NCBI GenBank assembly: GCA_964291495.2 | Contig: OZ219871.1 | Span: 800,001 to 864,000 of the forward strand | DNA from: Dehalococcoidia bacterium | GTDB lineage: Bacteria; Chloroflexota; Dehalococcoidia; UBA2979 | Length of the DNA: 64,000 nucleotides | Reading direction: 5' to 3' | Part shown: piece by piece, positions 3,028 through 29,061 of the stretch | Layout of the letters: the number at the start of each line of letters is the position of its first letter | Numbering within the stretch: the first letter of the stretch is position 1 | Position numbers and translations under genes: made by a program | Notes under the pieces: model-generated | The model's input: the letters and a program-made list of their open reading frames with translations, nothing else | The model's database searches: none | Told to the model about the DNA's origin: nothing

Positions 3028-3175
3028 CCGCCTCGAGCTGATCGGGGCTCGAGAAGGTGGGGATGGCGGACGACGGATTCACGCCGGACTGGGACGCGCT
3101 GACCGAGGACGGAGCGTCAGGCGAGCTTGAGGGCGCGATCCCGCACAAAATAGGTAGAGTTGGCGAGGATTTTTC

Positions 3176-3199
3176 TCACCACTGCACGAACATGGGCAT
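3176..3199 (-). other. Left att junction: displaced copy of the dnaN 3' end (MPMFVQW*)
   Basis: 20/24 nt identical to 50704-50727, with all four mismatches at synonymous third positions; similarity ends at core GGCAT (3195-3199 / 50723-50727). Confidence 0.9.
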
Positions 3200-3296
3200 C
3201 GACGCTCGACATTCACAAACCTGAGCGGGCGTACGTGCCCTTCCGGAGGACGTTTGCGCGGCCAGTCAGCGCCGCCACCCGCAAGTCCTGAGGCAA

Positions 3297-3314
3297 TCTC
3301 TCTCTCTCTCTCTC
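3297..3314 (+). repeat. (TC)9 dinucleotide tract
   Basis: Seen directly in the sequence. Confidence 0.8.
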
Positions 3315-3494
3315 GCTGGATTGCCGGCATGACGACGTGCTCGTGCAAGTAGGGTGCGCTCCGGTTCTGCGTGGAGCTGTCTCTCTGAGCGACCGAGAAC
3401 CCGTGCGCCGCTAACCTCGACTACACTTGAGACCCCGGCTACCAGTAGCGCGTCGTGCGCTGCACCACTGGTGATCACCCACTACAGAGATGGC

Positions 3495-4607
3495 ATGCCT
3501 GTGTCCAGCGACCGTAGCGAGCCGAACGAACTCGGGTCAGTCGATATCGAGTGGGGCGTCGATATGGACACGATGTCCTTCACACCCACGGTATCCGGCG
3601 CCTCCGGTCAGGCGATCAACTACCGGGGCCGTTGCCAGGGTTGTTGGGGAAGCTTGGTTGGCAGGGTCGACGAACACCATGTCTGGACGGGGATAAGGTG
3701 CCGCGTGTGTGCGGAGACTGTCGTAGGCACGAAGGCTGCTGAGGAGGAGCGCAGGCTATCGATGGAGCTCTTTGGCAACGTCTTCAGGATGGAGTTCGGT
3801 TCGGACTCGGCCTACGAGGAGGGTCCGTTCGCCTTCAAGGTGTTCCCTAGCCTAGATCGGTTGACCGAGGAAGAACTCCGATATCGAGTCGCCGCCGCCA
3901 CTTCAAGGATTACCCGGAGCCAAGCTCGGTCTCACCTCACGAGGAAGGCGTTCCCGCTCGGTTCGGCCGGCTGGCTCTTCCTTCAAGCCAAAGTCTTGGT
4001 GTCGGGAGCGCCCGCCGAGCCTAGCCTCCGCACGCGGTTAACTGTCGGCTTTCCACAGGTAGACTTTAACGATGACGGTGCAGTTGCTGCGCGGTTTGAT
4101 ACAGCAAGAATGAGCCAAGACCCTGACTCCGACAGGCAAACTATGCTCAGTGTACTGGGGTCCAACATGCGCGATGCCATGGTGTCCGCCTTCTGTTGTG
4201 AACTCGCCATGAAGGCGATCTGCCTTACCTTCGAGGACATCGCGCCCAAGTCCCATGACCTCCATGAACTCTTCACCCATCTTCCCGAACAGAGCCAGGC
4301 TCGAGTCAAGGCAGACTACTCGGAGATTGAGGCGGTGCTCCTGAGAGAGCGACAGACTTTCGGGGCGTGGAGATACTTCGAGAGGGATTCCGAGGCCAGG
4401 GGGATGGGCGCCATGATCAATCCAATCAAGGCATCGGAGCTGAGCCGGGCCGCGAGAGTGATCCTCGACGAGGCGGAAATCATGGGCCTCAGTGGGAGAA
4501 TCTCGCTAGACACGCGACAACGAGTACAAGAAGCCCACGGATCGCGGAGGTACGACAACACAGTCGACGCAAGTGTACGGGGCACCGAGCGGCCACCTAG
4601 ACCCTAA
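3495..4607 (+). CDS. Zn-ribbon + HEPN-like domain protein
   Basis: CQGC...CRVC near the N-terminus; C-terminal AFCCELAMKA...KSHDLHELF...WRY pattern typical of HEPN helical domains. Confidence 0.6.
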   Translation: MPVSSDRSEPNELGSVDIEWGVDMDTMSFTPTVSGASGQAINYRGRCQGCWGSLVGRVDEHHVWTGIRCRVCAETVVGTKAAEEERRLSMELFGNVFRMEFGSDSAYEEGPFAFKVFPSLDRLTEEELRYRVAAATSRITRSQARSHLTRKAFPLGSAGWLFLQAKVLVSGAPAEPSLRTRLTVGFPQVDFNDDGAVAARFDTARMSQDPDSDRQTMLSVLGSNMRDAMVSAFCCELAMKAICLTFEDIAPKSHDLHELFTHLPEQSQARVKADYSEIEAVLLRERQTFGAWRYFERDSEARGMGAMINPIKASELSRAARVILDEAEIMGLSGRISLDTRQRVQEAHGSRRYDNTVDASVRGTERPPRP

Positions 4608-4684
4608 TCATCTCCCGATGCCCAGCTGTCGAGGCCCCTAGCGAGACTGGCCAGCAGATCCGTGTCGCGGATTGCGATCCAACG

Positions 4685-6175
4685 TCACGCTTCCAGCCAC
4701 TCGTCAGCGAGTGCCTCAGCATGCTCAGGTCTTCCCGCCAGAATGAGTCCTACAGCTTCCCGATACGGGGCGAGCGCCCCGTCCATACTCCTTGGGTGCT
4801 GGACGACTAGGCGAGCTATGTCGCCTGGCTCGAGCTTCAGTAGACCCTGCGGATATTGCCGGACCAACTGGGCCCTCGATTCGGACGTAGTTGAGGAGAG
4901 CATCGCCAGGCACCAAGCGGCCTGCTCATCAGGGCTCGTGATCCCAGGGAACCGCACACCGTAAAGCGTATTCGAGGCTGTGAGCCCCGACTTGCGATTA
5001 AGCGCCACCCAGGGCCTCGCGACCGACATGCCCGTTACGAAGCCGTCGAACGGTTCGGGGATCGGGACGCGATACCAAGGATCGCGGTCTCTGACCTTCA
5101 TGGCCTCCCGACGGCACCCGCCTTCGTCCTCAGGAAGGTCCAGGTATGCGCGAACAGCTGCGTGCGAGAGATCTTCCTCCTCCGGCCAAAAGAGCCACAC
5201 ACGCTCGCCGGCATCCCAAAGCCCAGTCCAAGCATCTTCGTCGATCTCCGAGCCGATGATGTGCTGTGCCTTGGATACGACCGGTCTGAGGACGGAGCGC
5301 GGGAGCCCGAGCGCGAGTCGCTGGGTCTCGTTGAGCAGGAAGAAACGTGCATCCCCGGTTACAGCGCCGACGCGGATCTGAGCGATTTCGCCAAACCGGA
5401 CCTGGTTTTCAGCGAGACACGACTCGGTGGAGCGCAGCCCACTACTGGTCACCGCCAAGTCGGGCGTGCAGACGGCTTGGCTTAGTGCAGACAATGTCCG
5501 ATGTCTGATCACTTGTGCTCTGCGCCGGGGCTCTCGTCCGAAACCGCGGCCAACGAGCAAGACGGAACCGTCGGCGACTGTCTCGAACATCGGGACGGAG
5601 ACGCGGTGCACGTCGAGTTCCTCGAATGATGACTCACAAATGCTCCTGAGTGGGCTGGCGTAGTTCGCGTACTCCCAGGCAGCCGGCAGGATGTAGGCCA
5701 GAGATCCGCCAGGCTTCAGCAGTCGCATGCCGGCAACGAGGAAGGCCACCCAGTAGTTGGCTGTCGCCGAAATGCCGAACCCGTCGAGTCGTGTCTCTAG
5801 GGCCGGGCGTGACAGAGCCTCCTCGAGCTCGCGAAGCCGCACGAAAGGAGGATTGGCTATAACGCGATCAAACCGCCGGTCGGTCCGCTGCGCCCAGCTC
5901 AAGAAATCAGTACCTAGCAGGTTCTCCACGCCGATGCTGTTCAGCGTAGGTAGGTCTGCCTGCAAGTCGATAGCCAAGATCGATTCGGCGGGAACACCTG
6001 CTCGAAGAACGGCGGCAATGAGCTGACCGGACCCTGCGCTCGGGTCGAGCCAAGAGGCGGCTTCTGCCGGGCCCACGGCCCGGACCAAGGCGTCGGCCAG
6101 AAGATCAGGGGTGTCCGCCATGCCCTTGTCCGGCGGGACGGCGACAGTTCGTCGTTCCCGCTCTGCGCTACTCAT
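4685..6175 (-). CDS. N6-adenine DNA methyltransferase (gamma class, Eco57I/TaqI-like)
   Basis: Motif I LDPSAGSG precedes motif IV VIANPPF; C-terminal TRD-like region; start overlaps the upstream stop. Confidence 0.85.
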   Translation of the reverse strand: MSSAERERRTVAVPPDKGMADTPDLLADALVRAVGPAEAASWLDPSAGSGQLIAAVLRAGVPAESILAIDLQADLPTLNSIGVENLLGTDFLSWAQRTDRRFDRVIANPPFVRLRELEEALSRPALETRLDGFGISATANYWVAFLVAGMRLLKPGGSLAYILPAAWEYANYASPLRSICESSFEELDVHRVSVPMFETVADGSVLLVGRGFGREPRRRAQVIRHRTLSALSQAVCTPDLAVTSSGLRSTESCLAENQVRFGEIAQIRVGAVTGDARFFLLNETQRLALGLPRSVLRPVVSKAQHIIGSEIDEDAWTGLWDAGERVWLFWPEEEDLSHAAVRAYLDLPEDEGGCRREAMKVRDRDPWYRVPIPEPFDGFVTGMSVARPWVALNRKSGLTASNTLYGVRFPGITSPDEQAAWCLAMLSSTTSESRAQLVRQYPQGLLKLEPGDIARLVVQHPRSMDGALAPYREAVGLILAGRPEHAEALADEWLEA

Positions 6176-6938
6176 CATCCCAGGACGCATTCCAGAGAGA
6201 GTCGAGCACGCTCTTGTTGTCGCGAACCGCCGCCAAGGCCTCCCCAAAATATCCTTCCAGCAAGTGGCTCTGGGACACTCTCAGGGAACCCGTCCAAGCG
6301 GGTTCCCGCCGGATATTCTTGTAAGCGTCTGGGTAGAACGTCGCTGCGACAAGCTCGGACGCAAGGACTAGGTCCATCGGCATATGGAGCATCCGTGGCA
6401 CGGAGAGTGCTTCCGGGAACCAATGCAGTTCATCGGGCCGCGCGTTGCCGCCGACCTGAAGGTGGTAGTGCGGACCAGCCTGGCCCGAGTTCGCGAGGTC
6501 AAAGTGAACCCTCAGCATGACACGGCCGGTGTCGGGGTTGGTCTTGTGTTCTAGAGCGGGTGCATCCCACTCCTTTCTGAAGTAGACCTGGGGCTCAAGG
6601 CTCCACACGCGTATGACGACGCGCAGATCAACCGGCCGTTCGGCCGGTTCCTCCTCCCAATAGGCGCTCAAGAAGAGGTCGACACGGACATCGAGGCCGT
6701 TCACCATCGTCTTCGCGAATCTCAGGGGGTTGTTGGGACCTATTCGGAATCCCCACGGGCGCGTTGGCCTCTCACGCCGCCCCTGCTGTTGGCTCACGTC
6801 GAACGCCTCCTTGGACTCAAGCAGCATCGACTTCGCTTGTACGATCACAGCCCCGGCGCCGTCATCGAGAATCGGTCGGAATCGGCTGTCGATGGTTTCC
6901 AGGCTCTGCTGAACCTGACCCGCGGTGATCCCCATCAA
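6168..6938 (-). CDS. Hypothetical protein, DUF2290-like
   Basis: RVHFD...GPHYHLQVGG...PR..HMPMDL motif; coupled to neighbouring genes; family assignment from memory. Confidence 0.55.
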   Translation of the reverse strand: MMGITAGQVQQSLETIDSRFRPILDDGAGAVIVQAKSMLLESKEAFDVSQQQGRRERPTRPWGFRIGPNNPLRFAKTMVNGLDVRVDLFLSAYWEEEPAERPVDLRVVIRVWSLEPQVYFRKEWDAPALEHKTNPDTGRVMLRVHFDLANSGQAGPHYHLQVGGNARPDELHWFPEALSVPRMLHMPMDLVLASELVAATFYPDAYKNIRREPAWTGSLRVSQSHLLEGYFGEALAAVRDNKSVLDSLWNASWDDE

Positions 6939-8002
6939 ATGGCAGCCCGGATCTCTTCCAGGCGAGCCCTGCTTGCTGCCTCAACATACATTTCTTCGAC
7001 TTCATTGCTCTCGCGGATGGCTCTGAATGAGACGCGCGCTTCCTCCATTACAGGAGGTCGCGCATCCGGCTGATAGGGGAGCGAGGTTTCGATTCGGACG
7101 GGAACGCCGAGCACATGACACACCGTGTCGGCAGGACTACTGCCAGTCTCCTCGTCAGCGGACGGATCTAGCTCTAGGTCAAGGCTCTGGCCCGCAGCAA
7201 GGCGAAACCCCTCGCGCACTCCCCGTGCCGGATCTATGGATGCACACAATCGGCTCGCGATGTTGAAGAGAGAGTGCCGCCACCACCGCTGCTGCTCTTC
7301 CGAGAAGGGCCCTCGGTAGGTGGCGGGCTGCAGCAACACTTGGACAGCGTGCTGCCTGAAGCTCTCCAGCGAGATGCCAAGCGCTGTCGCTGCGTGTAGA
7401 TCGTCGTATAGGACTCCGGGATAGCGGAGAAGAACCGAGCGAAGCCAGTGGGCAACCTCGAACACTCTCCATCCGTCGCCTGGCGGTAGCGCCTCCAGGG
7501 CGTACCTCTGGCCAGCTTCATCTGTGTCGAGAAGTTCCAGCAGCGCCGACGCGGAGTGTTCCGGGGTACTACGCAGCGTTTGATACCCTCGGGCAAGCGA
7601 AACCAACCGCGCATGAGTACCGTCCGCGTCAGTCTCAAGCTCGGTGTCCTTGAACATGATGTCATCGAATGCCGCCCCGGTTAGGACGGTACGCTCCATT
7701 TGTGTCCACTTTCCAAGATTGCTTCTAGTAAGCAATACAATGGGTAAGTCCGGCTTTATCTCCCTTATTCGGGCGGCCAATGTCATCCCAAGGTACGGTG
7801 CGAAAGTTCCGTTTTCCTGTTTCGTATCCAACTCGTAATCAACAAGGAATAGATCTGCGTCGGCGTCAAGTAGAGGAGACATATCGAGATCAATCGGAGG
7901 TGCGAGAGGAATGACTTCAAAGTCACCAGCACAGATTCTCTCAATCAGCGCTGGAAGTGTAGTTCTGTCCTGATCGTCGACTAAGACTAGGTTGAACGTC
8001 AT
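6935..8002 (-). CDS. Response-regulator receiver domain fused to an unknown C-terminal domain
   Basis: VLVDDQ...FLVDYEL...LTR...FK receiver signature; ATGA overlap with the kinase gene. Confidence 0.8.
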   Translation of the reverse strand: MTFNLVLVDDQDRTTLPALIERICAGDFEVIPLAPPIDLDMSPLLDADADLFLVDYELDTKQENGTFAPYLGMTLAARIREIKPDLPIVLLTRSNLGKWTQMERTVLTGAAFDDIMFKDTELETDADGTHARLVSLARGYQTLRSTPEHSASALLELLDTDEAGQRYALEALPPGDGWRVFEVAHWLRSVLLRYPGVLYDDLHAATALGISLESFRQHAVQVLLQPATYRGPFSEEQQRWWRHSLFNIASRLCASIDPARGVREGFRLAAGQSLDLELDPSADEETGSSPADTVCHVLGVPVRIETSLPYQPDARPPVMEEARVSFRAIRESNEVEEMYVEAASRARLEEIRAAI

Positions 8003-10224
8003 GAATGTCCTCTAAGCGGCGCTACGACCTCGACGGTAGTTCGCCAAGGACTAGATGATGGTACGATCTCAACATCGCCGCCCCAAGCCTCTGCCAAGTC
8101 ACGGACTATCTTAAGGCCAAGACCGGTTCCTATCCCCAAAATAGGATCTGGCTGGCTCGTGGTAAAGAAAGGTTCAAATACAACATCCCTATTCTCGGGA
8201 GGGATGCCAACACCGGTGTCATGCACTCTGAGCGTGAACGTATCCTTCGTCATTTCCGCCTCCACGCGCACCCGACGCTCTGGGACGCCCTCCCGGACTG
8301 CCTTAAACGAGTTCGTCAGAAGGTTGAGCAGTACCGCGTACATCTCGGGCTCGTAGAGAGATGGTGTGCGCACAGCTGGTGGCACCTCGTTCTCTAGAGT
8401 GATGCTGAAGTGGTCTAAGTACTTGGCGAAGCCTCGCTCCAAGTTCTCGACCAACGGACGAACGGCGCGCGATCGCGGTCGTGTACGGGCTTCCGGGGCC
8501 AACAAGAGCCCTACCAGCGAGCCCTGGTCGAACGCCATCGTTGACCAAGACCGAAGATCGTCGAGTGCTTCCTGATAGCCGTCGAGATGTTCAGGCGGCA
8601 CATGGGTCGCGAGCAGCTCAAAGGCATCGCCAATTTCTCGGAGTTGCCTTGCCATGGTGCGAAGCATGTGATCGAAGACGACCACGGTGGTGCCGGCCGA
8701 AGCGAGTACGCGCAGCATCGACAGCTCCGAGGCTTGCGCGGCTGTCTCCTGGCGGAGGAGCGCCTCGGCCTCGTCGAGGGATGTCTCGATGGCTCGCCTT
8801 GCCTCATCGGGGATGGCCGCCTCGTGAACGACCGCACTCCGCAGGGACTGTAGAGCCTGGGCCACGCTCGCAGCTCCGTCCGAGTCGCCCGTCTCCCGTG
8901 GCCGATCGCGAGCTACCGCCGCCGCCTCGCGTGCGCGGCAGACCGTCATCCAGTCGATACCGTCTCGCACGAACTGCTTGAGCTGCTGAAAGCTGTCGTT
9001 TTGGACCAGCCGATCTCGGCCGATGCTCACCGCCAAGCCGGGGTTGTTCTCCCGGGAGATGGACACGGAGCCGAACAACTGCATATTGCCCGGCAACGAC
9101 AGCATTGGTCGATCGAGCCCTCCCGCTTCCGTCTCAAGCCACTTGGGAAGTTGAGCCTGCCTCCTGGCACGCTCTTGATCGAGGTCCAGCCAGTCGTCTC
9201 CCGGCGAACCGTATGAGAATACCTGGAAGCCGTCCAAGTAGACCCTGACCCCGCCTCTCGCACGTCCCAGGTCTCTCGCTTCCCTCAGGTTGTACCCTGA
9301 GCCCCTGAAACGCCCCCCCTGGTAGACCATCATTCGGATAGTGAAGGCGACTCTATGCAGGTCGGGAAACGAGCGCTCGTGCGGTTTGTGCTGAAGCAGA
9401 ATGTCAGTGTCAAGGAGATTGAGTTCATACTGGGGTTCCCCTCGATCGGTCACCGTGCCGGTGAGCAGCGCCCAAGCTGCTTCTAGGAACGGCTCCCCGA
9501 TGGCCCCCTCGAATCTTGGAAACTCTGGCGCGAGGATCTGTACCTCGAATCCTGGGTCAGCTTCATGGTCGTGATTCCGACGTACGTACCCGCCAAGTTC
9601 ATCCAGGTTCATCAAGTCACGGAACTCAGCCTGAAGCTCGGCCAGGTCCCCTTCGGTCCAACCATCTTTGAGTCCACTAAGGCGTAGGCTCGTTCCAGTT
9701 GGAAGCTCGTCATCGAGGAGCTCACGCGTAACGCTCGATGTCACATCGGCTAGATCGCGACCAGGCTCGAAGTCCTCCCAGTTGAACTCGGCCCTGATGC
9801 GCTCGGAGCCGCCCGACACGCTTGAAGTCGATTCGAGGGACAACCGAGACGCCAGCCGTCCACATGCGAATCGCCCTATGCCCTTCGCGCCAGTCCTCGG
9901 CCTGCCGAATCGCGTCGACCGCGCGTTTATCGTTGCATCGTTCGTCGCGATCCGCATCCAGCCCCGCTTCAGGGCCTCCAGAGTCATGCCCGAACCGTCG
10001 TCGAGCACCTCGATCGAACCCCGTGGACCTTTCACGTCCTCGAAACTCACAACGACCTCGGTCGCGTCGGCGTCGTAGGCGTTCTTGAGCAGCTCAGCGA
10101 GAGCCACCGAGCGGCGAGCGACCAGCCGTTCCCCCAACTCGATGAGCAGCGCAGCGTCGACATCGAAAGCTAGGCTGGTGGTTTCGCCTTCAGGCATCTT
10201 CTGTCCAGCCCTACGCGAAGTCAT
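7999..10224 (-). CDS. MORC/MutL-like GHKL ATPase fused to a histidine kinase
   Basis: N-terminal ELLKNAYDADA/DDGSGM/GAKGIGRFA; C-terminal H-box FDH, N-box NLLTNS, HDTGVGI, FEPFFTT, GTGLGL. Confidence 0.88.
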   Translation of the reverse strand: MTSRRAGQKMPEGETTSLAFDVDAALLIELGERLVARRSVALAELLKNAYDADATEVVVSFEDVKGPRGSIEVLDDGSGMTLEALKRGWMRIATNDATINARSTRFGRPRTGAKGIGRFACGRLASRLSLESTSSVSGGSERIRAEFNWEDFEPGRDLADVTSSVTRELLDDELPTGTSLRLSGLKDGWTEGDLAELQAEFRDLMNLDELGGYVRRNHDHEADPGFEVQILAPEFPRFEGAIGEPFLEAAWALLTGTVTDRGEPQYELNLLDTDILLQHKPHERSFPDLHRVAFTIRMMVYQGGRFRGSGYNLREARDLGRARGGVRVYLDGFQVFSYGSPGDDWLDLDQERARRQAQLPKWLETEAGGLDRPMLSLPGNMQLFGSVSISRENNPGLAVSIGRDRLVQNDSFQQLKQFVRDGIDWMTVCRAREAAAVARDRPRETGDSDGAASVAQALQSLRSAVVHEAAIPDEARRAIETSLDEAEALLRQETAAQASELSMLRVLASAGTTVVVFDHMLRTMARQLREIGDAFELLATHVPPEHLDGYQEALDDLRSWSTMAFDQGSLVGLLLAPEARTRPRSRAVRPLVENLERGFAKYLDHFSITLENEVPPAVRTPSLYEPEMYAVLLNLLTNSFKAVREGVPERRVRVEAEMTKDTFTLRVHDTGVGIPPENRDVVFEPFFTTSQPDPILGIGTGLGLKIVRDLAEAWGGDVEIVPSSSPWRTTVEVVAPLRGHS

Positions 10225-10296
10225 GATGGCTGTCGCAAGACTACCTCACGGACGGCACTGCTTCTTCGCGAGCGATAATCGCTGACTTGCTCTCGC

Positions 10297-10304
10297 AGTA
10301 TACT
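10297..10304. promoter_or_regulatory. Palindromic AGTATACT giving a TATACT -10 box on both strands between divergent defence operons
   Basis: Lies in the 131-bp gap between 10224(-) and 10356(+); no convincing -35 found. Confidence 0.4.
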
Positions 10305-10355
10305 CTTTGCCGTGCCTACGACCGCAGCTCCTCCCCATAGCACGAGGCATCTAGG

Positions 10356-11396
10356 ATGACGACTGCCCAAACTCAGTCCCACCTCCAGCGGCATCAGCTC
10401 GAAGCCTGGGTTCCCGACGGGCTGGGCGGGTTCAGCGATGAGCAGACCGCCATCCCGAGCATTGCCCGTGATCCCGAACTCACCGCGAGGATCTCTGATG
10501 CGGTGGAGCGTATCCCCACCTCACACCGACTCTACCTCGGTGACTCGCGCGACCTTTCGGAGATCGAGTCGGGCAGCGTGCATCTCGTCCTAACATCGCC
10601 GCCGTACTGGACACTGAAGGAATACAGGGACTCCGCTGGTCAATTGGGATCGGTCGTCGACTACGAGCGCTTCCTCTCCGAACTCGATCGTGTGTGGCGC
10701 GAGTGCTTCAGGTTGCTCGCCCCTGGGGGGCGCCTCGTTTGCGTCGTGGGCGATGTTCTGCTGTCCCGCCGACGGAACAACGGCCGGCACGTGGTCGTCC
10801 CGCTGCACGCGTCGATCCAGACCCACTGCCGTAGCCTAGGTTTCGACAACCTTGCCCCGATTATCTGGCACAAGATAGGGAACGCCGATTACGAGGCCGG
10901 CGGCGGCGGCTTCCTCGGGAAGCCGTACGAACCGAACGCCATCGTCAAGAACGACATCGAACATATCCTCTTTCAACGCAAGCCAGGCGGGTACCGGAGT
11001 CCCTCATTCGCCATGCGGCTGATGTCGGTCATTCCGGCGGAGGATCATCGAAGGTGGTTCCGGCAGGTGTGGACGGATGTGACCGGGGCCTCCACCAAGC
11101 TGCACCCGGCCCCGTTCCCCCTGGAGCTGGCAGACCGGCTGGTCCGCATGTTCAGCTTCGTCGGCGATACGGTGCTCGATCCCTTCCTCGGTACGGGCAC
11201 GACGAGCCTGGCCGCGTCGCGCAGTGGACGTAACAGCGTAGGCGTGGAGATAGCTGACGACTACCTCAACCTTGCCGCAGCCTCCTTGCGGCAAGAGGCG
11301 CTCCATCCCCACCGACGGATGGAGATTGAGGTCACCGAGCTGGGTAGCGCTAGTGCAGTCCCCGATCTCACGGATGAGGAAGTCCTGTCACCATGA
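10356..11396 (+). CDS. Site-specific DNA methyltransferase, beta class (N4-C/N6-A)
   Basis: Catalytic TSPPY precedes HPAPFP and DPFLGTGTT. Confidence 0.9.
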   Translation: MTTAQTQSHLQRHQLEAWVPDGLGGFSDEQTAIPSIARDPELTARISDAVERIPTSHRLYLGDSRDLSEIESGSVHLVLTSPPYWTLKEYRDSAGQLGSVVDYERFLSELDRVWRECFRLLAPGGRLVCVVGDVLLSRRRNNGRHVVVPLHASIQTHCRSLGFDNLAPIIWHKIGNADYEAGGGGFLGKPYEPNAIVKNDIEHILFQRKPGGYRSPSFAMRLMSVIPAEDHRRWFRQVWTDVTGASTKLHPAPFPLELADRLVRMFSFVGDTVLDPFLGTGTTSLAASRSGRNSVGVEIADDYLNLAAASLRQEALHPHRRMEIEVTELGSASAVPDLTDEEVLSP

Positions 11397-12328
11397 ACCC
11401 GCAGCCGCGTCCGTTCCGGGACGCCGTTGAGTACTTCTGGAGGAGCAGGAAGCGGTTCGAAGGCGACGAGAGCGTTGCATTCGCCGGCCGCCGGCAGGAG
11501 GTTGTGGGCGGCAGTCACTTCAACGAATTCCTCGCGACGCTGCGCGAACTGTTGATATCGGCCGACGTGCCGCAGGAGTCCGTGTTCTATCGCCGACGCC
11601 TTACGTTACTTCCGGGCTACTTCCGCGCCACGAAGATGTGGGACCTGCTGGTTGTTTCCGACGGGGAGCTCCAAGCGGTCGTCGAGTTGAAGGCTCAGGT
11701 TGGACCGTCATTTGGGAACAACGCGAACAATCGGGCAGAGGAGGCGTTGGGGAACGCGGTCGACCTCTGGACCGCGTATCGCGACGGCGCGTACAGCGCG
11801 AACCCCGCGCCCTGGGTGGGGTACCTGTTCTTGCTGGAGGATTGTGACGCGACTCGGCGTCCCCTCCGGACCGACGAACCTCACTTTCCCGTTCTCGGGG
11901 ACTTCCGGGGCGCCTCCTACGCGAAGCGGTATGAGTTCCTCCTCCGCCGCATGGTGATCGAGCGCCACTACTCCTCGGCCTGTCTGCTGCTGTCCGAGCC
12001 CCGCCTCGCAGCAAACGACCGTAACTACACAGAGCCCGCGCCCGACTTGAGCGCCGCTAGGTTCATCGATGGACTATTGCGCCGTTGCTCCCCGCTCGTA
12101 GGGCTAGGAGGAGCTCCATCGAAGACAGGCAATGGTGCCCTGAGGGCGGCGTCAACGATCTGGTCGCTCGGCGGAGCCTTTGTCGTCCTGCGAGAGACGG
12201 GCGTGCCCACGTCGGGAGTGTGCCAGGAGAGACTGGTGGGCGGCCGGGGCACACGTCTGCCAAGACGACTTTCGCAGGGGTGGCGGGGTACATACCACTC
12301 CGCTACTACGACGCAAGGGAGTAGATAA
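11393..12328 (+). CDS. PaeR7I/XhoI-family type II restriction endonuclease (3' tail possibly spurious)
   Basis: PGYFRATKMWDLLV...VELKAQVGPSFGNNANNRAEEALG motif; ATGA coupling to the MTase. Confidence 0.85.
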   Translation: MNPQPRPFRDAVEYFWRSRKRFEGDESVAFAGRRQEVVGGSHFNEFLATLRELLISADVPQESVFYRRRLTLLPGYFRATKMWDLLVVSDGELQAVVELKAQVGPSFGNNANNRAEEALGNAVDLWTAYRDGAYSANPAPWVGYLFLLEDCDATRRPLRTDEPHFPVLGDFRGASYAKRYEFLLRRMVIERHYSSACLLLSEPRLAANDRNYTEPAPDLSAARFIDGLLRRCSPLVGLGGAPSKTGNGALRAASTIWSLGGAFVVLRETGVPTSGVCQERLVGGRGTRLPRRLSQGWRGTYHSATTTQGSR

Positions 12329-12752
12329 TGATCCCAAGGAAGAGCGCCCCGAACATCATGGGCATAATCGTCTCTACCACCGAGAGTTTCCAATACCGAT
12401 TGCTCTTAGTGCCCGCCGATTCCGGGTCCCACTCCATCGTGAAGAACTGATACGGCAAGCGCGTCTCCATGTCGTGAAGCACGCGAAACTTCTCTGTGTT
12501 GAGTTGCCGGTACGATCGGAGAACGATGTACCACGACGCCGACACGATCAGACCACAAATTCCGATCGCGAGGATCACGATGGCATCGAGCGTCCGGTCC
12601 TCGCTGAATCTGATGAGGGTTCCGAGGAATACTACGAGAGCCACAGCGATGCTGACGTGAAGTCGGTTGGCTCCTTCTCGTCGTTGACTCACGCGGTCGG
12701 TGAGCTCAGCGTGGAGCTTGTATAGGTCCACATACGTGTCGGTCTCTGTCAC
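12306..12752 (-). CDS. Small multi-pass membrane protein (SLATT/RipA-like putative effector)
   Basis: About 3 hydrophobic helices; W...SYRQLN..KF.V...E..LP motif; GTGA overlap with the TIR gene. Confidence 0.7.
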   Translation of the reverse strand: MTETDTYVDLYKLHAELTDRVSQRREGANRLHVSIAVALVVFLGTLIRFSEDRTLDAIVILAIGICGLIVSASWYIVLRSYRQLNTEKFRVLHDMETRLPYQFFTMEWDPESAGTKSNRYWKLSVVETIMPMMFGALFLGIIIYSLAS

Positions 12753-13159
12753 ACGAGTTCTCGGATGCCCTTGACGATGCTCTCGGTGTTCCATCCAACG
12801 ACTTTGTCAGCCGTTTCCCGCACTCTGTCCGAGATGCGTTGGTTAGCCCAGGGCCGTACGGCGAGCACCGGCTTCTCTGACGTGAAACCGTTCTTTGCGA
12901 GGTCGAGCTCAATGTTGATCCACTTGCTGTAGGTGGCATAGACGCCCGCTAAGACAACCACGACCTGACAAGGGGCCATCTGCCTGCGAATCGCGTTGCG
13001 CAGTTCGGTCTGGTTCCTCGCATTGTGAATCGGGTCCTCTGGGGGGACCGAGTAGTCTCTGAACGAGAAATAGCGCCGTCGGTCGAGGAGGTTGATGAAT
13101 CGATCGTACGAATCGCTGTGACGCCACGAGTGACTGACGAACAGATTGTATGTGTTCAC
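12749..13159 (-). CDS. TIR-domain protein (ThsB/MTH538-DUF1863-like)
   Basis: LFVSHSW, SKWINIE (catalytic Glu position), KPVLAV, ADKVVGWN. Confidence 0.88.
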   Translation of the reverse strand: MNTYNLFVSHSWRHSDSYDRFINLLDRRRYFSFRDYSVPPEDPIHNARNQTELRNAIRRQMAPCQVVVVLAGVYATYSKWINIELDLAKNGFTSEKPVLAVRPWANQRISDRVRETADKVVGWNTESIVKGIRELV

Positions 13160-13550
13160 TGCTTCTTTCTCCCGTGCCCTGCCTTGTGCCTCAAGGGTCA
13201 GTACTGCTCGGTAAGCTGCGCCAGCCGCGCCCTCGATTCCTCGATGCTCGGCGTTCGGCGAAACCGACCTGCTTCAGACAATCATGTCCTGGGGCGGAGC
13301 GCCTGCCCAATCCCGTCTGCCTCATGGGTCGCAGTCTCCCTGAATGGACAGCCAGCCACAATCACGGCCTCCACCAATGCCACCGGGTCACGGGCGCACG
13401 ATGGCGCTGCTCCCGACCCATCTAGACGCCCTGCGGGCCCAGCCATGCTGGATATCCCGCGAGGACATCCATGGCACGCAAGAAGGCTGCCGCACATCGA
13501 AGGAGGGGAGGGCACCGCCGTCGGCGATGCCCTCCCTCTTGCGTGTCGGG

Positions 13551-15791
13551 CTAGCCTCTCTCGCCGACCCGCTCCGCCTCGCGCTCCCGCTTCAGTGCCC
13601 ACTCGAACAGGGAGAGCGTTGGGGCTTCGTCCCGGCGCTTGCGCGGCGGCTCCTCCGGCTCCGCGGCCATGAACTCCGCCCACGAGAACAGCGTGCGCTG
13701 CGGCCCCGAGTCCACGATAGCCTCGACGGCCACCGTGTCCGCGACCGGCTCCGGCTCGGGCGCGTGCCAGCCCTCGTCGACCAGCAGCGCCTCGGCCTCA
13801 GCCGCGACCTGCCGCGCCTGCTCGAAGAACGACTCGACCGAGCCGGCCTCCTCCTCGCCCGCGACGATCTTCCTCGCCAGGGCGATCAGGAGGTCGTCAC
13901 CGTCGTCCCCGTAGGCGGCGAGGCCGTCCTCCGGCAGCTCCCCCTCGACGGCGAGCGACGACTGGAGCTTCTGCGCCACGAGCTTGAGGGCGTCGGCCTG
14001 GAGGGTGTTCCGGTAGGCCATGAAGACGACCTGGACGGGCTCGCTCTGCCCGATCCGCCAGGAACGCCGTGACGCCTGCCGCATGGTGTAGACGGAGTAG
14101 TCCGTCTCGTACCAGCAGATCGTCGGGAACTCCACGAGATCGAGACCCGTCTGCACCAGCCGCGGGTGGCAGACGAGCACGTCGACGCCCTCCTCGACGC
14201 GCTTCGCCACCCACGCCTCGCGGCGCTCGGGCGGCACCGCGTCGGCCTTCATCACCGCGACCCGGAAGCCGTGGCGGGAGAGGAACTCCTCCATCCGCCC
14301 GGTGATGTCGCGCGTGCCCGTGTGCGTGGCGTAGACGAGCACCCGGCGTCCAGCCAGCCGCTCGGCGGCCACGAGGTCGACGAGCGCCCGCTCCTTCGGG
14401 TAGAGCCGGTCCTCGGGAAGCGGCGGCACCTGCACGAGCAGCTCCTCCGACTCCGGGTCGAAGACGGTCTCGCCCTGCGTGCAGCCGTCGGGGTAGGCGA
14501 GCAGCGTCTGCAGGTAGGTGGCGAGCAGCCGCCGCGAGCCCTTCGAGAGGGCGTCGGCGAGCGCTGCCCTGAGCGCCCCGTAGAGCTCGTCGTAGCCCGC
14601 GCGCTGCGAGAGCCCATTCCCGTCCGGCTCCGTATCCATCGAGGAGAGCAGCACGCGCTCCTCGTAGGGCGGAAGGCCCGAGGCGACGTCGGAGAGCCGC
14701 AAGAAGACGCTGTTCCCGATGAGGTGGAAGAGCGCGGCGGGGGCGAGCCCCGGCCGCTCGCGCACCACCTTGCGGTAGCGCTTGCGGCGGCTCGTGCGCC
14801 CGTCCTCGAAGGAGTCCGGGTCGTCTTTGCCGATGGTGTGCTCGACGAAGCCGTAGCGCTCGATCCAGCGGCTCTCCTCGGAGCGCCCGAACTCCGTGCG
14901 GATCTCCGGGCTGAACCGGTAGAGCAGGTGGAAGAGCGTCGAGGAGTAGCCTCCCATCAGGGTGCCCGAGAGCGAGAGCGACTTGCCGCAGGCGTCGGCG
15001 AGGACGCCGGCGGCGATGCCCTGGGCGGAGCCTCGCGCCTTGAACTCGTGGACCTCGTCGCCGATCAGCAGCTCGAAGAAGCCCCTCAGGCGGTGCTTCA
15101 CGTAGTCGCTGAGCGGGTAGCGCTTCGGTCCCGAGTTGTCGGCCTGCCAGAGGGCGGAGCCGCACTCGCCGCAGGTGCGCTTGCGGCGGGCGAGGTCGCG
15201 GCCAAGCAGCGGGACGCCGTCCTTGTCCACGACCTGCTCGTGGCAGTCCGGGCAGCAGGGCACCCGCAAGGGCTCGCCCGTCTCCTCGTCGCGCACGAGC
15301 CGGCCGCCGGACGTGGCCCAGCGCTGCACCACGGCGGGCTGCCAGCGGTACGAGAGCTTGGCGCGCTCGCGCGACATGATCGCGAAGAGCGGACCGGGGC
15401 CTGCCATGGCGCGCAGGCGCTCGAGGTCGGTGATCGAGGCGACGATGACGGCGCGGGCGCCGGGCACCGTCTCCTCGACCTCGCGCTTCCACTTGCGGGT
15501 CAGATGCGGGGGGCAGAGCACGAGCACCCGGCGGAAGCCGGCCATGTGGGCCGCCGAGGCGGCGATGAAGGTCTTGCCTGTGCCCATCTCGCCGACGACC
15601 GTGGTGCCGCGCTGCGCCTCAAGCGAGAGCGCCGCGCCGCGGATGGCATCGGCCTGCGCGCCCAGTGGGGCGCGCAGCAGGCGGGGGAGTGGGCGGCCCT
15701 GCTCCGAGGGCCGGTAGCGGGGCGGGTAGGACTCCACCACCCGCCGGGCGATGGCGTCACGGTAGGTGTCGATGAATTCGGCCAGGTCCAT
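13551..15791 (-). CDS. SF2 (SNF2-like) helicase with a Zn-finger insert
   Basis: GEMGTGKT, DEVH, SGT, TGLDL, QASRRSWRIGQ; CPDC...CGEC. Confidence 0.85.
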   Translation of the reverse strand: MDLAEFIDTYRDAIARRVVESYPPRYRPSEQGRPLPRLLRAPLGAQADAIRGAALSLEAQRGTTVVGEMGTGKTFIAASAAHMAGFRRVLVLCPPHLTRKWKREVEETVPGARAVIVASITDLERLRAMAGPGPLFAIMSRERAKLSYRWQPAVVQRWATSGGRLVRDEETGEPLRVPCCPDCHEQVVDKDGVPLLGRDLARRKRTCGECGSALWQADNSGPKRYPLSDYVKHRLRGFFELLIGDEVHEFKARGSAQGIAAGVLADACGKSLSLSGTLMGGYSSTLFHLLYRFSPEIRTEFGRSEESRWIERYGFVEHTIGKDDPDSFEDGRTSRRKRYRKVVRERPGLAPAALFHLIGNSVFLRLSDVASGLPPYEERVLLSSMDTEPDGNGLSQRAGYDELYGALRAALADALSKGSRRLLATYLQTLLAYPDGCTQGETVFDPESEELLVQVPPLPEDRLYPKERALVDLVAAERLAGRRVLVYATHTGTRDITGRMEEFLSRHGFRVAVMKADAVPPERREAWVAKRVEEGVDVLVCHPRLVQTGLDLVEFPTICWYETDYSVYTMRQASRRSWRIGQSEPVQVVFMAYRNTLQADALKLVAQKLQSSLAVEGELPEDGLAAYGDDGDDLLIALARKIVAGEEEAGSVESFFEQARQVAAEAEALLVDEGWHAPEPEPVADTVAVEAIVDSGPQRTLFSWAEFMAAEPEEPPRKRRDEAPTLSLFEWALKREREAERVGERG

Positions 15792-15918
15792 GGTGTGTGT
15801 CTCCTTCTCCTGTGAGGGACGACACCGGGTCCTGGACGCACTACCCCCATCCCCGTGCAGCAGGGGAAGGTTGAGTGTAAGAAGCCATGGAACCGTCCCC
15901 CTTTCTGTGGTCGGTGCG

Positions 15919-15954
15919 AGGCCCGCCGCTCCGGTAGGGGAGACGGCGGGTCTC
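15919..15954 (-). terminator. GC hairpin between the MTase and helicase genes
   Basis: AGGCCCGCCG...CGGCGGGTCT inverted repeat; no U-tract. Confidence 0.35.
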
Positions 15955-15979
15955 GTGTGAGTGCCGCTCGTGCGAGCGG

Positions 15980-17017
15980 TCAGGCGGCGATGTCAGTGAT
16001 CTCGCCGAGATCGAGGTCGAGCGCGACGACGGTCGTGCGCAGCCGCTCCCGGTAGACCTCCTTCGCGCGCGTGGTCTCGACGAGCAGCATCTCCTTCGAG
16101 GTGCGGCCCTTCACGAGGATGCGCCCGTCCTCGCCCTCGAGCTGGAGGTTGTCGAGGAAGCCGGCCGCCACCAGCATCGCCAGGTGCCCGCGCCGCAGCG
16201 GCATGAGCGGCCTGGTGCGCTGGTCTTCCGCCGGCCAGAGCGCGTCGGTGACGGTCGTGCTGACCCAGAGCCCGGAGCGGCGCGACTCCTCGGCCGCCGC
16301 CACGGGGTCGACCGTGCGGGTGGCGAAGAGCACCTCCCCGTCCGCCGTCGCTGGGGCGTTGTAGACCGGGTAGCGATGCGGGTGCAGCTCATCGAGGTTC
16401 CCCTCGATCGCCTCCTGCAGCGCCACGGCCGCGTACTGGTCGTACATCGCCTCCGCCTTGCGGATGCCGGTTACGACCACCTGGTCGAAGGCCTCGCGCT
16501 CCGGCTCGGGGAAGGCCCAGACGCGCAGGCTCCGGTAGTGCGAGGCGAGGTAGCGGGCGCACTCCGCCAGCCGCCGCCTGGGCACCACGAACACCAGCAG
16601 CCCCTGCTCGCAGAGGTAGCGCGTGCAGTGCCGGAGGAAACGCATCTCGACGCGCTTCTCCTCCTCCCCCGAGTCATCGTCGTACGGCGGGTTCAGGTAG
16701 AGCAGCCCGAAGGCCCCGTTGGCGATCGCGGTCTGGAAGAGGTCCGTGCCCAGCGCGTGGTCGAGGCGCGCTTCCGCTTCCTTGGCGCGCTCGGCGTGGA
16801 GCTCCACCCCGAAGGTCTCCACCGAGGCCCCGTCGGGGCGCCCGATGCGCGAGGCGAGGTCGGCCAGCGCCTCCCCGGCCCCGCAGCAGGGGTCGAGGAT
16901 GCGCAGCGTGGTCTCGCCCCGCGTGACCGTGCGAGCCTGCATGAGGCTCGCGACCAGCTCGACGACCCGAGGCGGCGTCGGGTAGAAGCCTCCCTTGAAC
17001 TGCGCGGCCAGTCTCAT
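15980..17017 (-). CDS. ICE-type DNA methyltransferase (DUF6094-like)
   Basis: GFYPTP, LDPCCGAG, LYLNPPY; directly upstream of the helicase. Confidence 0.85.
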   Translation of the reverse strand: MRLAAQFKGGFYPTPPRVVELVASLMQARTVTRGETTLRILDPCCGAGEALADLASRIGRPDGASVETFGVELHAERAKEAEARLDHALGTDLFQTAIANGAFGLLYLNPPYDDDSGEEEKRVEMRFLRHCTRYLCEQGLLVFVVPRRRLAECARYLASHYRSLRVWAFPEPEREAFDQVVVTGIRKAEAMYDQYAAVALQEAIEGNLDELHPHRYPVYNAPATADGEVLFATRTVDPVAAAEESRRSGLWVSTTVTDALWPAEDQRTRPLMPLRRGHLAMLVAAGFLDNLQLEGEDGRILVKGRTSKEMLLVETTRAKEVYRERLRTTVVALDLDLGEITDIAA

Positions 17018-17679
17018 CTCGTGTCTCCTTTCGCTCCGTTCATTCGGATGTGCTGCGCGCCCTCATCGGGCGGCAGCGTGAGCAGTCCCGAGCCGACCGC
17101 CACCGAGAGGTCTTCCCGGAGGGCCTCGGCGTCGGGTGTGCAGCGCCAGGCGTGGACGCCCGACGCCTGCAGCGCCGAGATCTCGCCCTTCGCCAACCCC
17201 CGCCGCCACAGCCACTCCGCCCAGCTGCGGTGCAGCGGGAGGGGACTGCGGCGGTCGAGGAAGCGGTGGTGCAGGGCGGGCGCCTCCGCCTCGCCGGGGG
17301 CGAGCAGCAGGAAGGCGTCCCGCTCGAAGGCGTACTCCGCCATGCGCGTGTAGACCATGGCGTGCCAGCCCCCGCTCACCGGCAGGCGGGCGATCTTCGT
17401 GGTCCACGTGCCGATGGTCTCGTGCGGGACCTCGCAGCGGTGGAAGCCGCCCGAGAGCGCGAGCCCGTTGGCGCCGGCGAGCAGGTGGGCGCTCTCCGGC
17501 GGTCGCTTGAGGAGGGCGGCCCAGATCGCCTTGAGGGCGGACTGGGCGCCGACCATGGAGAGGAACCAGAGGCCCCCCGAGTCGGGGTCGCGGGCGAAGG
17601 CGTCGGCCGTGGCCGAGAATCCGCCCGCGCTGATCGTGTACAGGTCGTCCGGGTTGATGGCGGCGTCGGCCGCGAGCAT
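17014..17679 (-). CDS. Hypothetical protein (ICE backbone)
   Basis: GGAG RBS, GC3-rich codons, ATGA overlap with the MTase. Confidence 0.7.
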   Translation of the reverse strand: MLAADAAINPDDLYTISAGGFSATADAFARDPDSGGLWFLSMVGAQSALKAIWAALLKRPPESAHLLAGANGLALSGGFHRCEVPHETIGTWTTKIARLPVSGGWHAMVYTRMAEYAFERDAFLLLAPGEAEAPALHHRFLDRRSPLPLHRSWAEWLWRRGLAKGEISALQASGVHAWRCTPDAEALREDLSVAVGSGLLTLPPDEGAQHIRMNGAKGDTR

Positions 17680-17743
17680 CTGCTGTCTCCTTCCGGTAGG
17701 GGATGGGTGGGTGCGCGGGGCGGGAGCCCGTGTGCCGCGGCGC

Positions 17744-18241
17744 TCAGAAGAGGCCGCGGTCCTTGAGGCTGACGGCGCTGCCCGGCCCGCCGATCACGAC
17801 GTGGTCGAGGAGGGTGACGCCGAGCAGCTTCGCCGCCTCGGCGAGGTCCTTCGTGACCCTGATGTCATCGGGACTGGGCGTTGGGTCACCCGACGGGTGG
17901 TTGTGGGCCACGATGATGTTGGGGGCGGCGACCACCACCGCCGGGCGCAGCACCTCGGCCGGCCTGACGACGCTGGAATAGGCGTTGCCCTGGTAGATCA
18001 CCCGCTGCCCCACGACGCGGTTCTTGCGGTCCAGCAGCAGCACCCGCACCTGCTCCTGCGCGAGCGCTCCCATCTCCGGCCCCAGCAGCCGCTGCACGGC
18101 CTGCGGGGAGCAGAGGGCGGGGGCGTCGGGGTCGCGCTCCGGGAGCGTCTCGACCTCGTAGCGCACCGCCAGCTCGCCGAGGACGTGCAGGTTCTGGCGC
18201 AGGGCCTCCAGCACGGCGTCGGCGTGCCCCGGGGCGCTCAC
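17744..18241 (-). CDS. radC: RadC-like JAB domain protein
   Basis: QEQVRVLLLD...AHNHPSGDPTPSPDD...LLDHVVIG. Confidence 0.9.
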   Translation of the reverse strand: MSAPGHADAVLEALRQNLHVLGELAVRYEVETLPERDPDAPALCSPQAVQRLLGPEMGALAQEQVRVLLLDRKNRVVGQRVIYQGNAYSSVVRPAEVLRPAVVVAAPNIIVAHNHPSGDPTPSPDDIRVTKDLAEAAKLLGVTLLDHVVIGGPGSAVSLKDRGLF

Positions 18242-18774
18242 GCCGCCACCTCCACGGGGATCGCCTGCCCCAGCGGGCAGATGCAGTCCTCGTGGTCGGG
18301 TGAGTGCTCGTCGTCGCAGTCGAGGCAGTTGCCGCAGTTGCTGCAGGCCACGCGCTGGTGGGCGGCATCGCGGGCATGCCGCCGCGCGACCGTCGCCTCC
18401 CAGCAGCAGTTGCGCTCGCAGTTGTCGCCGTGGTCGTCCTCGGAGACCACGCCGTCCCGCTCGCACTCGCGGCAGTGGGTGCCCCCGGGGATGACGGGGT
18501 AGCCGCAGCCCGCGCAGTCCCCGCCGTACTCGCCATGCGCCTCGAGCTCGCGCCGCACGATCGCCGTGGCGAGGGGGTTGCCGCCGGGTCCATCGGACTC
18601 GGCGACGTAGTGCCAGGCCCACCTCGCCCCGAGGTCGGCCCAGTCGTTCGTGCGGTAGGACCAGCGGTCGCAGGTGCAGTGGCCGTTGAAGGGCTCGTCG
18701 CCCTCCAGCAGGGTCATGACCAGCGTGTGCGCGCTCCAGGTCGGGAGTGCGTCGCGTTCGGTGTTGGTCGCCAT
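18238..18774 (-). CDS. Cysteine-rich hypothetical protein
   Basis: 15 Cys in 178 aa, arranged as CxC/CxxC clusters; AAGGAG RBS; coupled to radC. Confidence 0.7.
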   Translation of the reverse strand: MATNTERDALPTWSAHTLVMTLLEGDEPFNGHCTCDRWSYRTNDWADLGARWAWHYVAESDGPGGNPLATAIVRRELEAHGEYGGDCAGCGYPVIPGGTHCRECERDGVVSEDDHGDNCERNCCWEATVARRHARDAAHQRVACSNCGNCLDCDDEHSPDHEDCICPLGQAIPVEVAA

Positions 18775-18891
18775 CTTCGGTTCTCCTTCGTGGTCTTGCC
18801 GTTCGGGTGGAACGAGAGCGGGGCCGCCCCCGTGAGGGAGCGGCCCCGTTGTGCGCCCGCGCTCAGGCGGGCGGCGTGTTGCGTGCCGTGG

Positions 18892-19296
18892 CTAGAAGGG
18901 CTGGTCGTCCGCGACCCCGGCGGCGGCCGCCTCGCGGCTGCCGTTGCCGTTGGAGCGGCCGTTGCCGCCGTTGCCGTTCGAGTCGAGGAAGATGATCTCC
19001 TGCGCGTGCACCTCGGTGCGGTAGACGCGCTCGCCGTCCTCGCGCTCGTAGCTGTTCTGCGCTAGCGAGCCCGCGACGAACACCCTGTTGCCCTTCTGGA
19101 CGTACTCGGAGACGGCCTCGGCGAGCTTTCCCCAGCAGACGACGTTGTGCCAGTCGGCCTCGGTCTCGCCGTTCTGGCGGCGACGGTCGGTCGCCAGCCT
19201 GAGCTGGCAGACGGCGGTGCCGTTCTGGCTGTACTTGAGGTCCGGCTCGACGCCGACCCGGCCCAGCAGCTCGACGCGGTTCATGGTGCGTGACAT
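18892..19296 (-). CDS. ssb: Single-stranded DNA-binding protein
   Basis: MNRVELLGR...WHNVVCWGKLAE...KG..V.V.G; acidic DDQPF tail. Confidence 0.95.
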   Translation of the reverse strand: MSRTMNRVELLGRVGVEPDLKYSQNGTAVCQLRLATDRRRQNGETEADWHNVVCWGKLAEAVSEYVQKGNRVFVAGSLAQNSYEREDGERVYRTEVHAQEIIFLDSNGNGGNGRSNGNGSREAAAAGVADDQPF

Positions 19297-19494
19297 TTCA
19301 AATCTCCTTCTTGTGGTAGTGGTTGGTGTCACTTGTGGGGGTAGCGGTGAGACCGCCACCCGGGCGTAGACGACTGCGGGGCCGCCCCGGAGGACGGCCC
19401 CGTTCGCGCTCCCCCTCGGGGAGCGGCTCTTCAAGCCTGGGTCTGATGCTGCGCTCGATAGGCGCCTCCTTCCTTCGGTGGATTGCCGGGCCGC

Positions 19495-20226: not shown

Positions 20227-20425
20227 GTGTCTCTCCTTCGTGTGCATTGCCTCGGTGGACTGGTGCGGGCCGCCCCGCGCGGGGAGGCCCGTGCGCGGGG
20301 CGGAGCCCCGTCGGTCATGCGTCATCGCGCCTCCCCTCAGGTCGGCGGTTGATCGGCGGGCACGCGCAACCGGCCCGGCTCGAAACGAGCCGGGCTGTCG
20401 GTGCCTGCCGGGTGGGATGGGTGGG

Positions 20426-21936: not shown

Positions 21937-22061
21937 CTCGTGCCTCCTTTTGGCGTTGTGTCGTGTCGGTGTCGTGCGCCCTCGCGGGCATGAAGCGGGG
22001 CCGCCCCCGGAGGGACGGCCCCATGTCTCGTGGTGGCCGGGCGGGCCGAGGCCCGCGGTCG

Positions 22062-23883: not shown

Positions 23884-23900
23884 CGTCCAGCGAGTGGGCG

Positions 23901-26556: not shown

Positions 26557-26689
26557 CGACAAGCACGACGACAGCCGGGCGCGGTCAGCCCGCGCCCGTT
26601 CGGCGACGCGACGGAGGTGGGAGATGTGCCGGTAGGCGAACGGACCGAGGACCCGAGAGACCAACCACGACACGCAAGGAGCGAAACAC

Positions 26690-26971: not shown

Positions 26972-26980
26972 GGGCTCCCC

Positions 26981-29040: not shown

Positions 29041-29061
29041 AGGCGCAAGGAGCGCATCCTG

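Follow-up and report, generated by a model that had tools for sequence, protein, structure and literature searches.

A serine integrase gene that probably spans its own attachment site, with a conserved tail read only on the circle, in a dnaN-targeting conjugative element of a Dehalococcoidia bacterium

The window analysed here is a 64,000-nt stretch from a Dehalococcoidia bacterium (assembly GCA_964291495.2, contig OZ219871.1, positions 800,001–864,000 of the forward strand). It holds an integrative conjugative element (ICE) next to dnaN, the gene for the beta clamp, together with the following features, given in window coordinates.

3095..3199, + strand: remnant of an older group-3 serine integrase, reduced to its final 35 codons and including its attachment-site arm
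3195..3199: left copy of GGCAT, with the probable crossover dinucleotide GG at 3195–3196 (dyad-symmetry scan)
3199..3291, + strand: detached tail of the integrase open reading frame (ORF), 30 codons and a TGA stop at 3289–3291 (translation and conservation)
3200..50727: ICE of 47.5 kb (Pfam matches and boundary comparison)
3326..3390, + strand: candidate relic of a group-3 attP, with a 15-bp attR copy and a second type of P' arm, its own frame decayed
49170..50729, + strand: large serine integrase in its integrated, tail-less form, 519 aa (Pfam)
50704..51837, − strand: dnaN, with three DNA_pol3_beta domains (Pfam)
50704–50724, − strand: last dnaN codons, PMFVQW and stop, supplied by the element
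50723..50729, + strand: right copy of GGCAT (50723–50727) and the junction stop TGA (50727–50729)

Pfam matches to conjugation and replication functions within the element include TrbL/VirB6, a T4SS pilin, a TraG/AAA_10 ATPase, Replic_Relax, a DnaG-type primase and SSB, and integrase, relaxase and type IV secretion genes are thereby found together in one bounded insert. Because this conjugation gene set lies within the 47.5 kb, the element is classed as an ICE and not, as a preliminary description of the locus had it, as a phage. Defence functions are represented by Pfam matches to XhoI-type and Eco57I-type restriction-modification sets and to a McrBC-like pair (AAA_5 plus PD-(D/E)XK). The defence-type genes lie at 4688–12325 and 44599–48427, and those listed comprise an Eco57I-like methylase, a two-HATPase protein and an N6/N4 methylase with an XhoI-type endonuclease. 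No resistance gene was seen among the Pfam matches across the 47.5 kb. The element also carries a second recombinase, a tyrosine integrase (41583–42686), and a 1658-residue protein on the − strand (36412–41385) in which fibronectin type III domains and Ig domains of the AIR9 type come after PPDK_N (pyruvate phosphate dikinase ATP-binding), an unusual combination for cargo of such an element.

The large serine integrase matches Resolvase (PF00239, 1.3e-29), Recombinase (PF07508, 4e-24) and Zn_ribbon_recom (PF13408, 2.6e-12). In an alignment of 64 integrase sequences the catalytic residues R8 and S10 are invariant, as are the zinc-ribbon cysteines C306, C309, C328 and C340, and the AlphaFold model of a natural relative places long helices (347–467), as of a coiled coil, between the strands of the zinc ribbon. 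The 3' end of dnaN is the insertion target of the 47.5-kb ICE, by way of this integrase. The end of dnaN, MPMFVQW and stop, is antisense to the last integrase codons, and the right arm of the element rebuilds the last dnaN codons on one strand while it encodes the integrase C-terminus on the other. Since one arm serves both purposes, the crossover falls inside the last codons of the integrase.

A 5-bp block of identity, GGCAT, is common to both element ends; to its right, the left end runs into element DNA and the right end into dnaN. With GGCAT at both ends, the T of the integrase stop codon lies inside the shared block and its G and A are bases of dnaN, in agreement with the preliminary description, which had the stop straddling the core. 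A dyad-symmetry scan was performed on four right-arm/left-arm junctions, three of them natural and the fourth made from the two ends of the window's element. In all four the attP dyad was best centred on GG (50723–50724 or 3195–3196), with 18, 12, 15 and 12 of 24 positions paired. The dyad of the target site was ambiguous in the sequence scan, its best centre being AT, 3 nt to the right of GG and still inside GGCAT. Both candidate centres lie within GGCAT, and the frame outcome is therefore independent of the exact position of crossover.

Base 3199 is the same as base 50727, so that the tail can be read without joining the two ends. Translation of 3199–3291 gives STLDIHKPERAYVPFRRTFARPVSAATRKS, followed by the stop, and bears out the earlier proposal that a circular join of 50727 to 3200 removes the junction stop and adds an in-frame tail of 30 residues ending at 3289–3291. 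On the circle the integrase ORF thus extends 30 codons into the left end of the element; after integration these codons sit 47.5 kb away and dnaN closes the gene, here with an immediate TGA. The crossover lies inside the integrase ORF and integration alters the 3' end of the gene. Because a recombinase ORF that crosses attP must encode different C-termini in the circular and integrated forms, two isoforms can be expected with high confidence whenever the gene is expressed in both states.

Codon usage of the tail resembles that of the integrase body at the third position (GC3 of 0.79 vs 0.80), with GC1 of 0.61 and GC2 of 0.69 in the tail. The tail is basic (pI 10–12). In the AlphaFold model of a natural full-length ORF of 546 residues, positions 501–546 have pLDDT below 50, compared with a mean of 81.9, and adopt no fold; with such values the model lends no support to docking of the tail onto its own integrase, which had been considered. 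A complex prediction from a DnaN alignment and a tail alignment scored 0.01 against a mark of 0.32, and speaks neither for nor against binding to the beta clamp. The last two residues of eight tails are KS, ER, EQ, GK, GE, VE, MW and SS; none ends in -AA. The final residues vary, and the tail does not have the appearance of a tag of the ssrA type. A minus-strand gene beneath the tail was rejected, as those frames hold stops. No promoter-like or terminator-like site following the tail stop was found at 3100–3600, and the predicted RNA fold of 3280–3400 was no better than that of shuffled sequences (z = 1.11). A (CT)n microsatellite, read from the sequence, occupies 3298–3314, between the tail stop and the relic site.

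The left junction had been described as lying against host DNA; what adjoins it is the remnant of an older integrase. [quoted passage not shown] The full serine integrases of these genomes (for example G013:C1:827526-829001, G012:C19:159078-160553 and G018:C2:1995821-1997296) are 48–50% identical to that of the window, and 3095–3199 is read in another frame. On the − strand, 3176–3199 encodes MPMFVQW and a stop, as the end of dnaN does, and is a displaced copy of it. Two assignments were considered and rejected: the ~100 bp to the left of 3199, which continue into dnaN in four congeners, are the older integrase remnant and not native host DNA, and L003, L006, L008 and L010 are junctions of a resident group-3 element and not empty attB sites. 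The junction at 3199/3200 sets the old arm against the new left end, and the boundaries of the present element are unchanged. Further to the left, at 3048–3109, lies a repeat of ~60 bp, possibly REP-like, which occurs at 89–94% identity in many congeneric genomes and has a second copy in its own genome (C5:92706-92767).

A serine integrase adjoins dnaN in all five congeners checked. With arms that reproduce the end of dnaN, resident elements leave a junction that resembles a fresh target, and newcomers stack beside dnaN. This arrangement marks the 3' end of dnaN as a hotspot of tandem arrays, in which new elements appear to take the junction of the previous element as their target. The dnaN-end mimic (50698–50729 and 3172–3199; L003–L010, L004, L009) is read antisense to dnaN by three integrase groups, each in a frame of its own, and their arms encode the same dnaN end by way of synonymous differences. 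The third integrase group uses the third frame of this region and has a short circle-form tail of its own; each group seems to possess its own left arm and its own such tail. In the small number of copies from the other two groups at this site these tails look conserved, a common stop position being found in 2 of 3 group-2 copies and in 2 of 2 active group-3 copies.

About 35 nt after the tail stop, a 15-bp attR sequence, CGGCATGACGACGTG, is present at 3326–3340 and again at 50722–50736. The left copy leads into a conserved stretch, a second type of P' arm. A left arm of this second type is seen in G013 (L016) and G265 (L018), where its first nine bases are the same as those of dnaN. Read in the group-3 frame, this arm stays open for 19 codons and stops at an identical position in G013 and G265, and in G013 it accompanies a group-3 integrase. 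A shortened relic site follows the tail stop in the window, in G012 (L062) and in G014 (L061); it begins 3 nt after the stop in the latter two, and the window and G012 have it with a broken frame. A weaker relic-like stretch after the tail stop of G302 (L053) was recognised by eye only, the relic-site pattern giving no match there. These observations suggest that the relic is the decayed attP of another integrase group and that integrase cassettes have been exchanged: a group-3-type element would have had its integrase exchanged for an integrase-plus-tail cassette, and the resulting composite would then have moved through the tail arm, since it is always the tail arm that faces outside DNA.

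Conservation of the tail was examined at the DNA level, beginning with a search of 401 genomes of the class, in which only G022 and G302 gave matches that covered the tail; a further copy, in G018, was recovered through a search with the flanks. A DNA pattern was fitted to four tail copies, checked on the known copies and scanned through the sequence collections, where it found 12 further loci (four in metagenomes, eight in genomes and none in viral sequences). A mismatch-tolerant form of the pattern matched in 8 of the 99 genomes of the order. With a looser setting of three mismatches, the 401 class genomes yielded only the six known genomes and noise-like matches with 2–3 mismatches, and a reversed control matched as well. 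The viral contigs contained neither a pattern match nor a close integrase relative (one locus, 22% identity), and the plasmid and phage collections contained no integrase relative above 33% identity and none that covered the tail. One pattern match, L047, had unrelated flanks and was discarded as a chance match. L049 was excluded from the counts of frame and stop because its tail is broken: it lacks 12 nt and stops at codon 12. After removal of duplicates, eight usable tail lineages remained, subject to an ascertainment bias in that the search pattern demanded part of the tail motif.

In seven of these eight lineages the first stop falls at codon 31, and in the eighth at codon 34 (33 codons). 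When the bases after codon 17 were shuffled, a stop position common to at least four of the eight lineages arose in 6 of 20000 trials. The tail consensus reads WTFNxHKPE, three variable positions, (V/L)(P/S)FRRT, two variable positions, R and nine variable positions before the stop at its fixed position; T2, H6, K7, E9, F15, R16, R17 and R21 are invariant. The preliminary description had asked for an open, conserved tail, perhaps with an xPF motif, and the tail is open and conserved in relatives, with the motif (V/L)(P/S)FRR. In G003 the two arginines of FRR are kept through two synonymous changes of arginine codon. Across nine copies, amino-acid identity in the tail frame was 0.56 and the BLOSUM62 score 2.64 per site, compared with 0.41–0.53 and 1.43–1.83 in the five other frames; nucleotide identity across the copies was 66%. 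For three phylogenetically independent pairs, pN/pS in the tail frame was 0.50, with 26 of 64 changes synonymous where 26% were expected (one-sided p = 0.0065), and in the +1 and +2 frames of the same pairs it was 1.04 and 0.81. The tail conservation measured in this way exceeds what chance would be expected to give.

The constraint nevertheless looks moderate only: codons 18–30 are variable at nearly every column, and the pair formed by the window and G302 is nearly neutral (pN/pS 0.87). The broken tail of L049 and the lineage with 33 codons likewise count against a functional tail. The tail is absent from all of the best 120 integrase homologues, of which 16 end exactly at the junction, three have other short extensions and 13 fall in a second group.

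Integrase and tail occur as one uninterrupted natural ORF in L044/L054 (549 aa), L050 (546 aa) and L057, and searching proteins with the final 50 residues brought up three clusters, one of them new, in which gene callers report the combined ORF. The junction of L050 lies within a chromosome and is a tandem hybrid, the integrase of a resident being fused in frame to the tail of a newcomer; we infer the same arrangement for L057, which lies on a short contig. The integrase of a resident thus appears to acquire, in frame, the tail of a newcomer that inserts beside dnaN, as seen in G001 and probably also in G003. The copies include no true circular-form sequence, the natural fusions within chromosomes being tandem hybrids, and no circular junction of the present element was found, its left-end DNA matching the window's own genome once, at its own place.

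Cognate pairs, defined by an integrase adjoining dnaN and a tail at the far end with no other close integrase between them, were identified in the window (47.5 kb), in G001 (87 kb) and in G201 (41 kb). Other tail copies are orphans (G022, G302, G474, G475 and G014), situated far from dnaN or in genomes without a close integrase. Four of these five keep the 30-codon frame, which selection on the fused protein does not explain unless the copies were orphaned recently. The tail copies of G012 are on contigs other than that of dnaN, and the same genome holds close integrases. A serine integrase 10 kb from the L049 copy in G475 was considered as its partner and rejected: it targets something else, its frame entering an apparent antisense tRNA as judged by eye. 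L067 (G475:C1:2588410-2589870) is an unrelated serine integrase (27% identity) whose frame continues past the domain region into what by eye is an apparent antisense tRNA; it may be another integrase gene that spans its own attachment site.

The end of the integrated form varies with the host. In G001 and G018 the immediate junction TGA is identical to that of the window. L065 (G201:C1:868597-873129) has an identical right-arm sequence and a C-terminus nearly identical to those of the G001 and G018 integrases, but it lacks the junction stop and reads 37 arginine-rich residues from antisense dnaN, because dnaN there uses GTG and not GTC for the two valines before the final Met-Pro. The earlier proposal of two recombinase isoforms therefore stands in that the ORF crosses attP and the C-termini differ, and has to be amended for the short form, which from these comparisons is host-dependent and has no fixed product.

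Taken together, these results lead us to favour an integrase gene that spans attP and gains a conserved tail on the circle only, a reading to which we assign a probability of about 0.68. That the tail is under selection as a protein is probable from the substitution pattern, at about the same confidence, and we infer that it forms a genuine, translated portion of the protein under moderate constraint, in the shape of a basic and probably disordered extension. The principal competing account is that the tail is translated on the circle without a role of its own, its conservation reflecting DNA functions of the left end, namely the P' half-site and perhaps other signals. An integrase gene that converges on dnaN must overlap the mimic, and its ORF would then simply continue to the next stop. 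Tail codons 2–8 do overlap the P' half-site of attP (about 3204–3220), so that their conservation may act at the level of DNA. Sequence conservation does not extend to the second half of the tail, no fold is predicted for the tail, orphan copies without an integrase keep the frame, and the end of the integrated form is arbitrary across hosts. The +1 frame is likewise open in nine of nine related copies of this GC-rich DNA, and openness alone therefore says little. The excess of synonymous changes, on the other hand, is specific to the tail frame, amino-acid conservation peaks there among the six frames, FRR is maintained by synonymous arginine changes, and the stop position is conserved between variable flanks. 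The PFRRT block, moreover, lies 38–52 nt from the junction, outside the inverted-repeat motif and beyond the half-site of an attachment site of 40–50 bp, the usual size for serine integrases according to the portions of the literature consulted. On this balance we regard a tail without a role as improbable, though deserving of real weight. The same openness of the +1 frame, and the frequency of 30-codon open stretches at this GC content, could also be taken to mean that the frame is open by chance and has no biological meaning; with motif, length and stop position conserved across lineages of only 66% nucleotide identity, this is barely credible.

A different kind of objection concerns the boundary. 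The tail could derive from an older element, with the true left end at the second P' arm at 3332; the circle would then keep its TGA and there would be no isoform switch. This second arm starts with the same bases as dnaN, the 15-bp attR copy lies at 3326–3340, the dnaN end is a site of tandem arrays, and in G013 an integrase 3' end (a remnant, with no full gene there) runs directly into the second arm and stops at TGA. The arm of this type in G013 goes with a group-3 integrase, however, which is read in another frame, and the copy in the window has a broken frame and a degraded left partner arm. Tail and relic also occur together in G012, G014 and apparently G302, in different contexts, and it is always the tail arm that abuts outside DNA, as for a composite that moved as a unit through the tail arm. 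We consider an older origin of the tail very unlikely.

If the gene spans attP as we favour, the full-length integrase would be produced at just those times at which the element has to integrate, namely once it has excised or has entered a recipient cell, and the resident, integrated form would be without the tail. The tail would then most likely tune the activity or lifetime of the integrase towards integration, much as integration of phage Mx8 rewrites the 3' end of its integrase gene. It is as a circle that a conjugative element has to integrate, and among the possible functions we therefore favour the promotion of integration or the setting of protein lifetime. Control of directionality or stability by the tail is a tentative suggestion and on present indications a doubtful one. 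Less likely still is a built-in, self-resetting switch by which only the circular element would make an integration-proficient (or stable) integrase; because recombination itself removes the tail, such a switch would need no extra regulator. Where elements are stacked, incoming elements could re-arm or disarm the integrases of their neighbours.

Serine integrases are widely used tools of genome engineering, and that they act in one direction is put down to a directionality factor separate from the enzyme. If the proposed arrangement holds, recombination that rewrites the C-terminus of the enzyme would constitute a second, built-in layer of control in a natural family. It would also bear on annotation, as the integrase genes of integrated copies are truncated or have host-derived ends, and the catalogued proteins may therefore not be the integrating form. 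The tandem stacking at dnaN further provides an apparent case in which successive elements reuse the gene-end mimic of the previous element as their target.

Attachment sites inside recombinase genes are familiar from other families. In the archaeal integrases of the SSV1 type, which are tyrosine recombinases, attP lies inside the integrase gene and integration alters the gene by splitting it into two large parts; here, by comparison, a short tail is lost. Mx8 Int, from Myxococcus phage Mx8, is a tyrosine recombinase that integrates at tRNA-Asp and is shortened by a long stretch at its C-terminus. Its two forms, IntP of the phage and IntX of the prophage, likewise result from an attP within the integrase gene and are the closest published parallel that was found, differing from the present case, in which a serine integrase of a conjugative element targets dnaN and loses a 30-residue tail. 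The likeness is therefore one of layout and not of recombinase family. A review places attP of Mx8 inside the integrase coding sequence and describes how integration recombines the gene so that its 3' end is new; the integrase altered in this way is reported as still active, with changed properties (PMC6070905).

The parallel with mycobacteriophages drawn in the preliminary description is real (PMC3694055, in the sections available). In BPs, Brujita, cluster P and M. abscessus prophages, as the available sections of two reports describe them, attP lies inside a gene, so that the C-termini of the viral and prophage proteins differ, and the junction stop is sometimes completed by the first bacterial base (PMC3694055, PMC8092301). 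The gene that is split in this integration-dependent immunity is, in the same sections, the repressor gene, the recombinase is a tyrosine integrase, and the piece removed is an ssrA-like tag ending in -AA (PMC3694055, PMC8092301). In the element studied here it is the recombinase itself that is split; attP is not in a repressor gene, and the ends of the tails are variable and not -AA. In the literature searched, no description of state-dependent isoforms of serine integrases was found, nor, in the parts consulted, was a serine integrase gene that spans attP or a dnaN target; these parts included passages of a large recombinase survey whose supplements might bear on the point (10.1101/2021.11.05.467528). 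In its domain set, and apparently in its short att sites with a small common core, the integrase is as the phiC31, Bxb1, A118 and SPbeta integrases are described in the material available. Canonical serine integrases, according to the same partial sources, integrate unidirectionally and are reversed by a separate directionality factor (RDF). In structural work on the SPbeta integrase, as far as the available text of the report describes it, the RDF was fused to the C-terminus, and the last 28 residues of the integrase are disordered (PMC11722253). A polypeptide appended to the C-terminus of a serine integrase can thus influence directionality, and it is at this end that the tail is joined on the circle.
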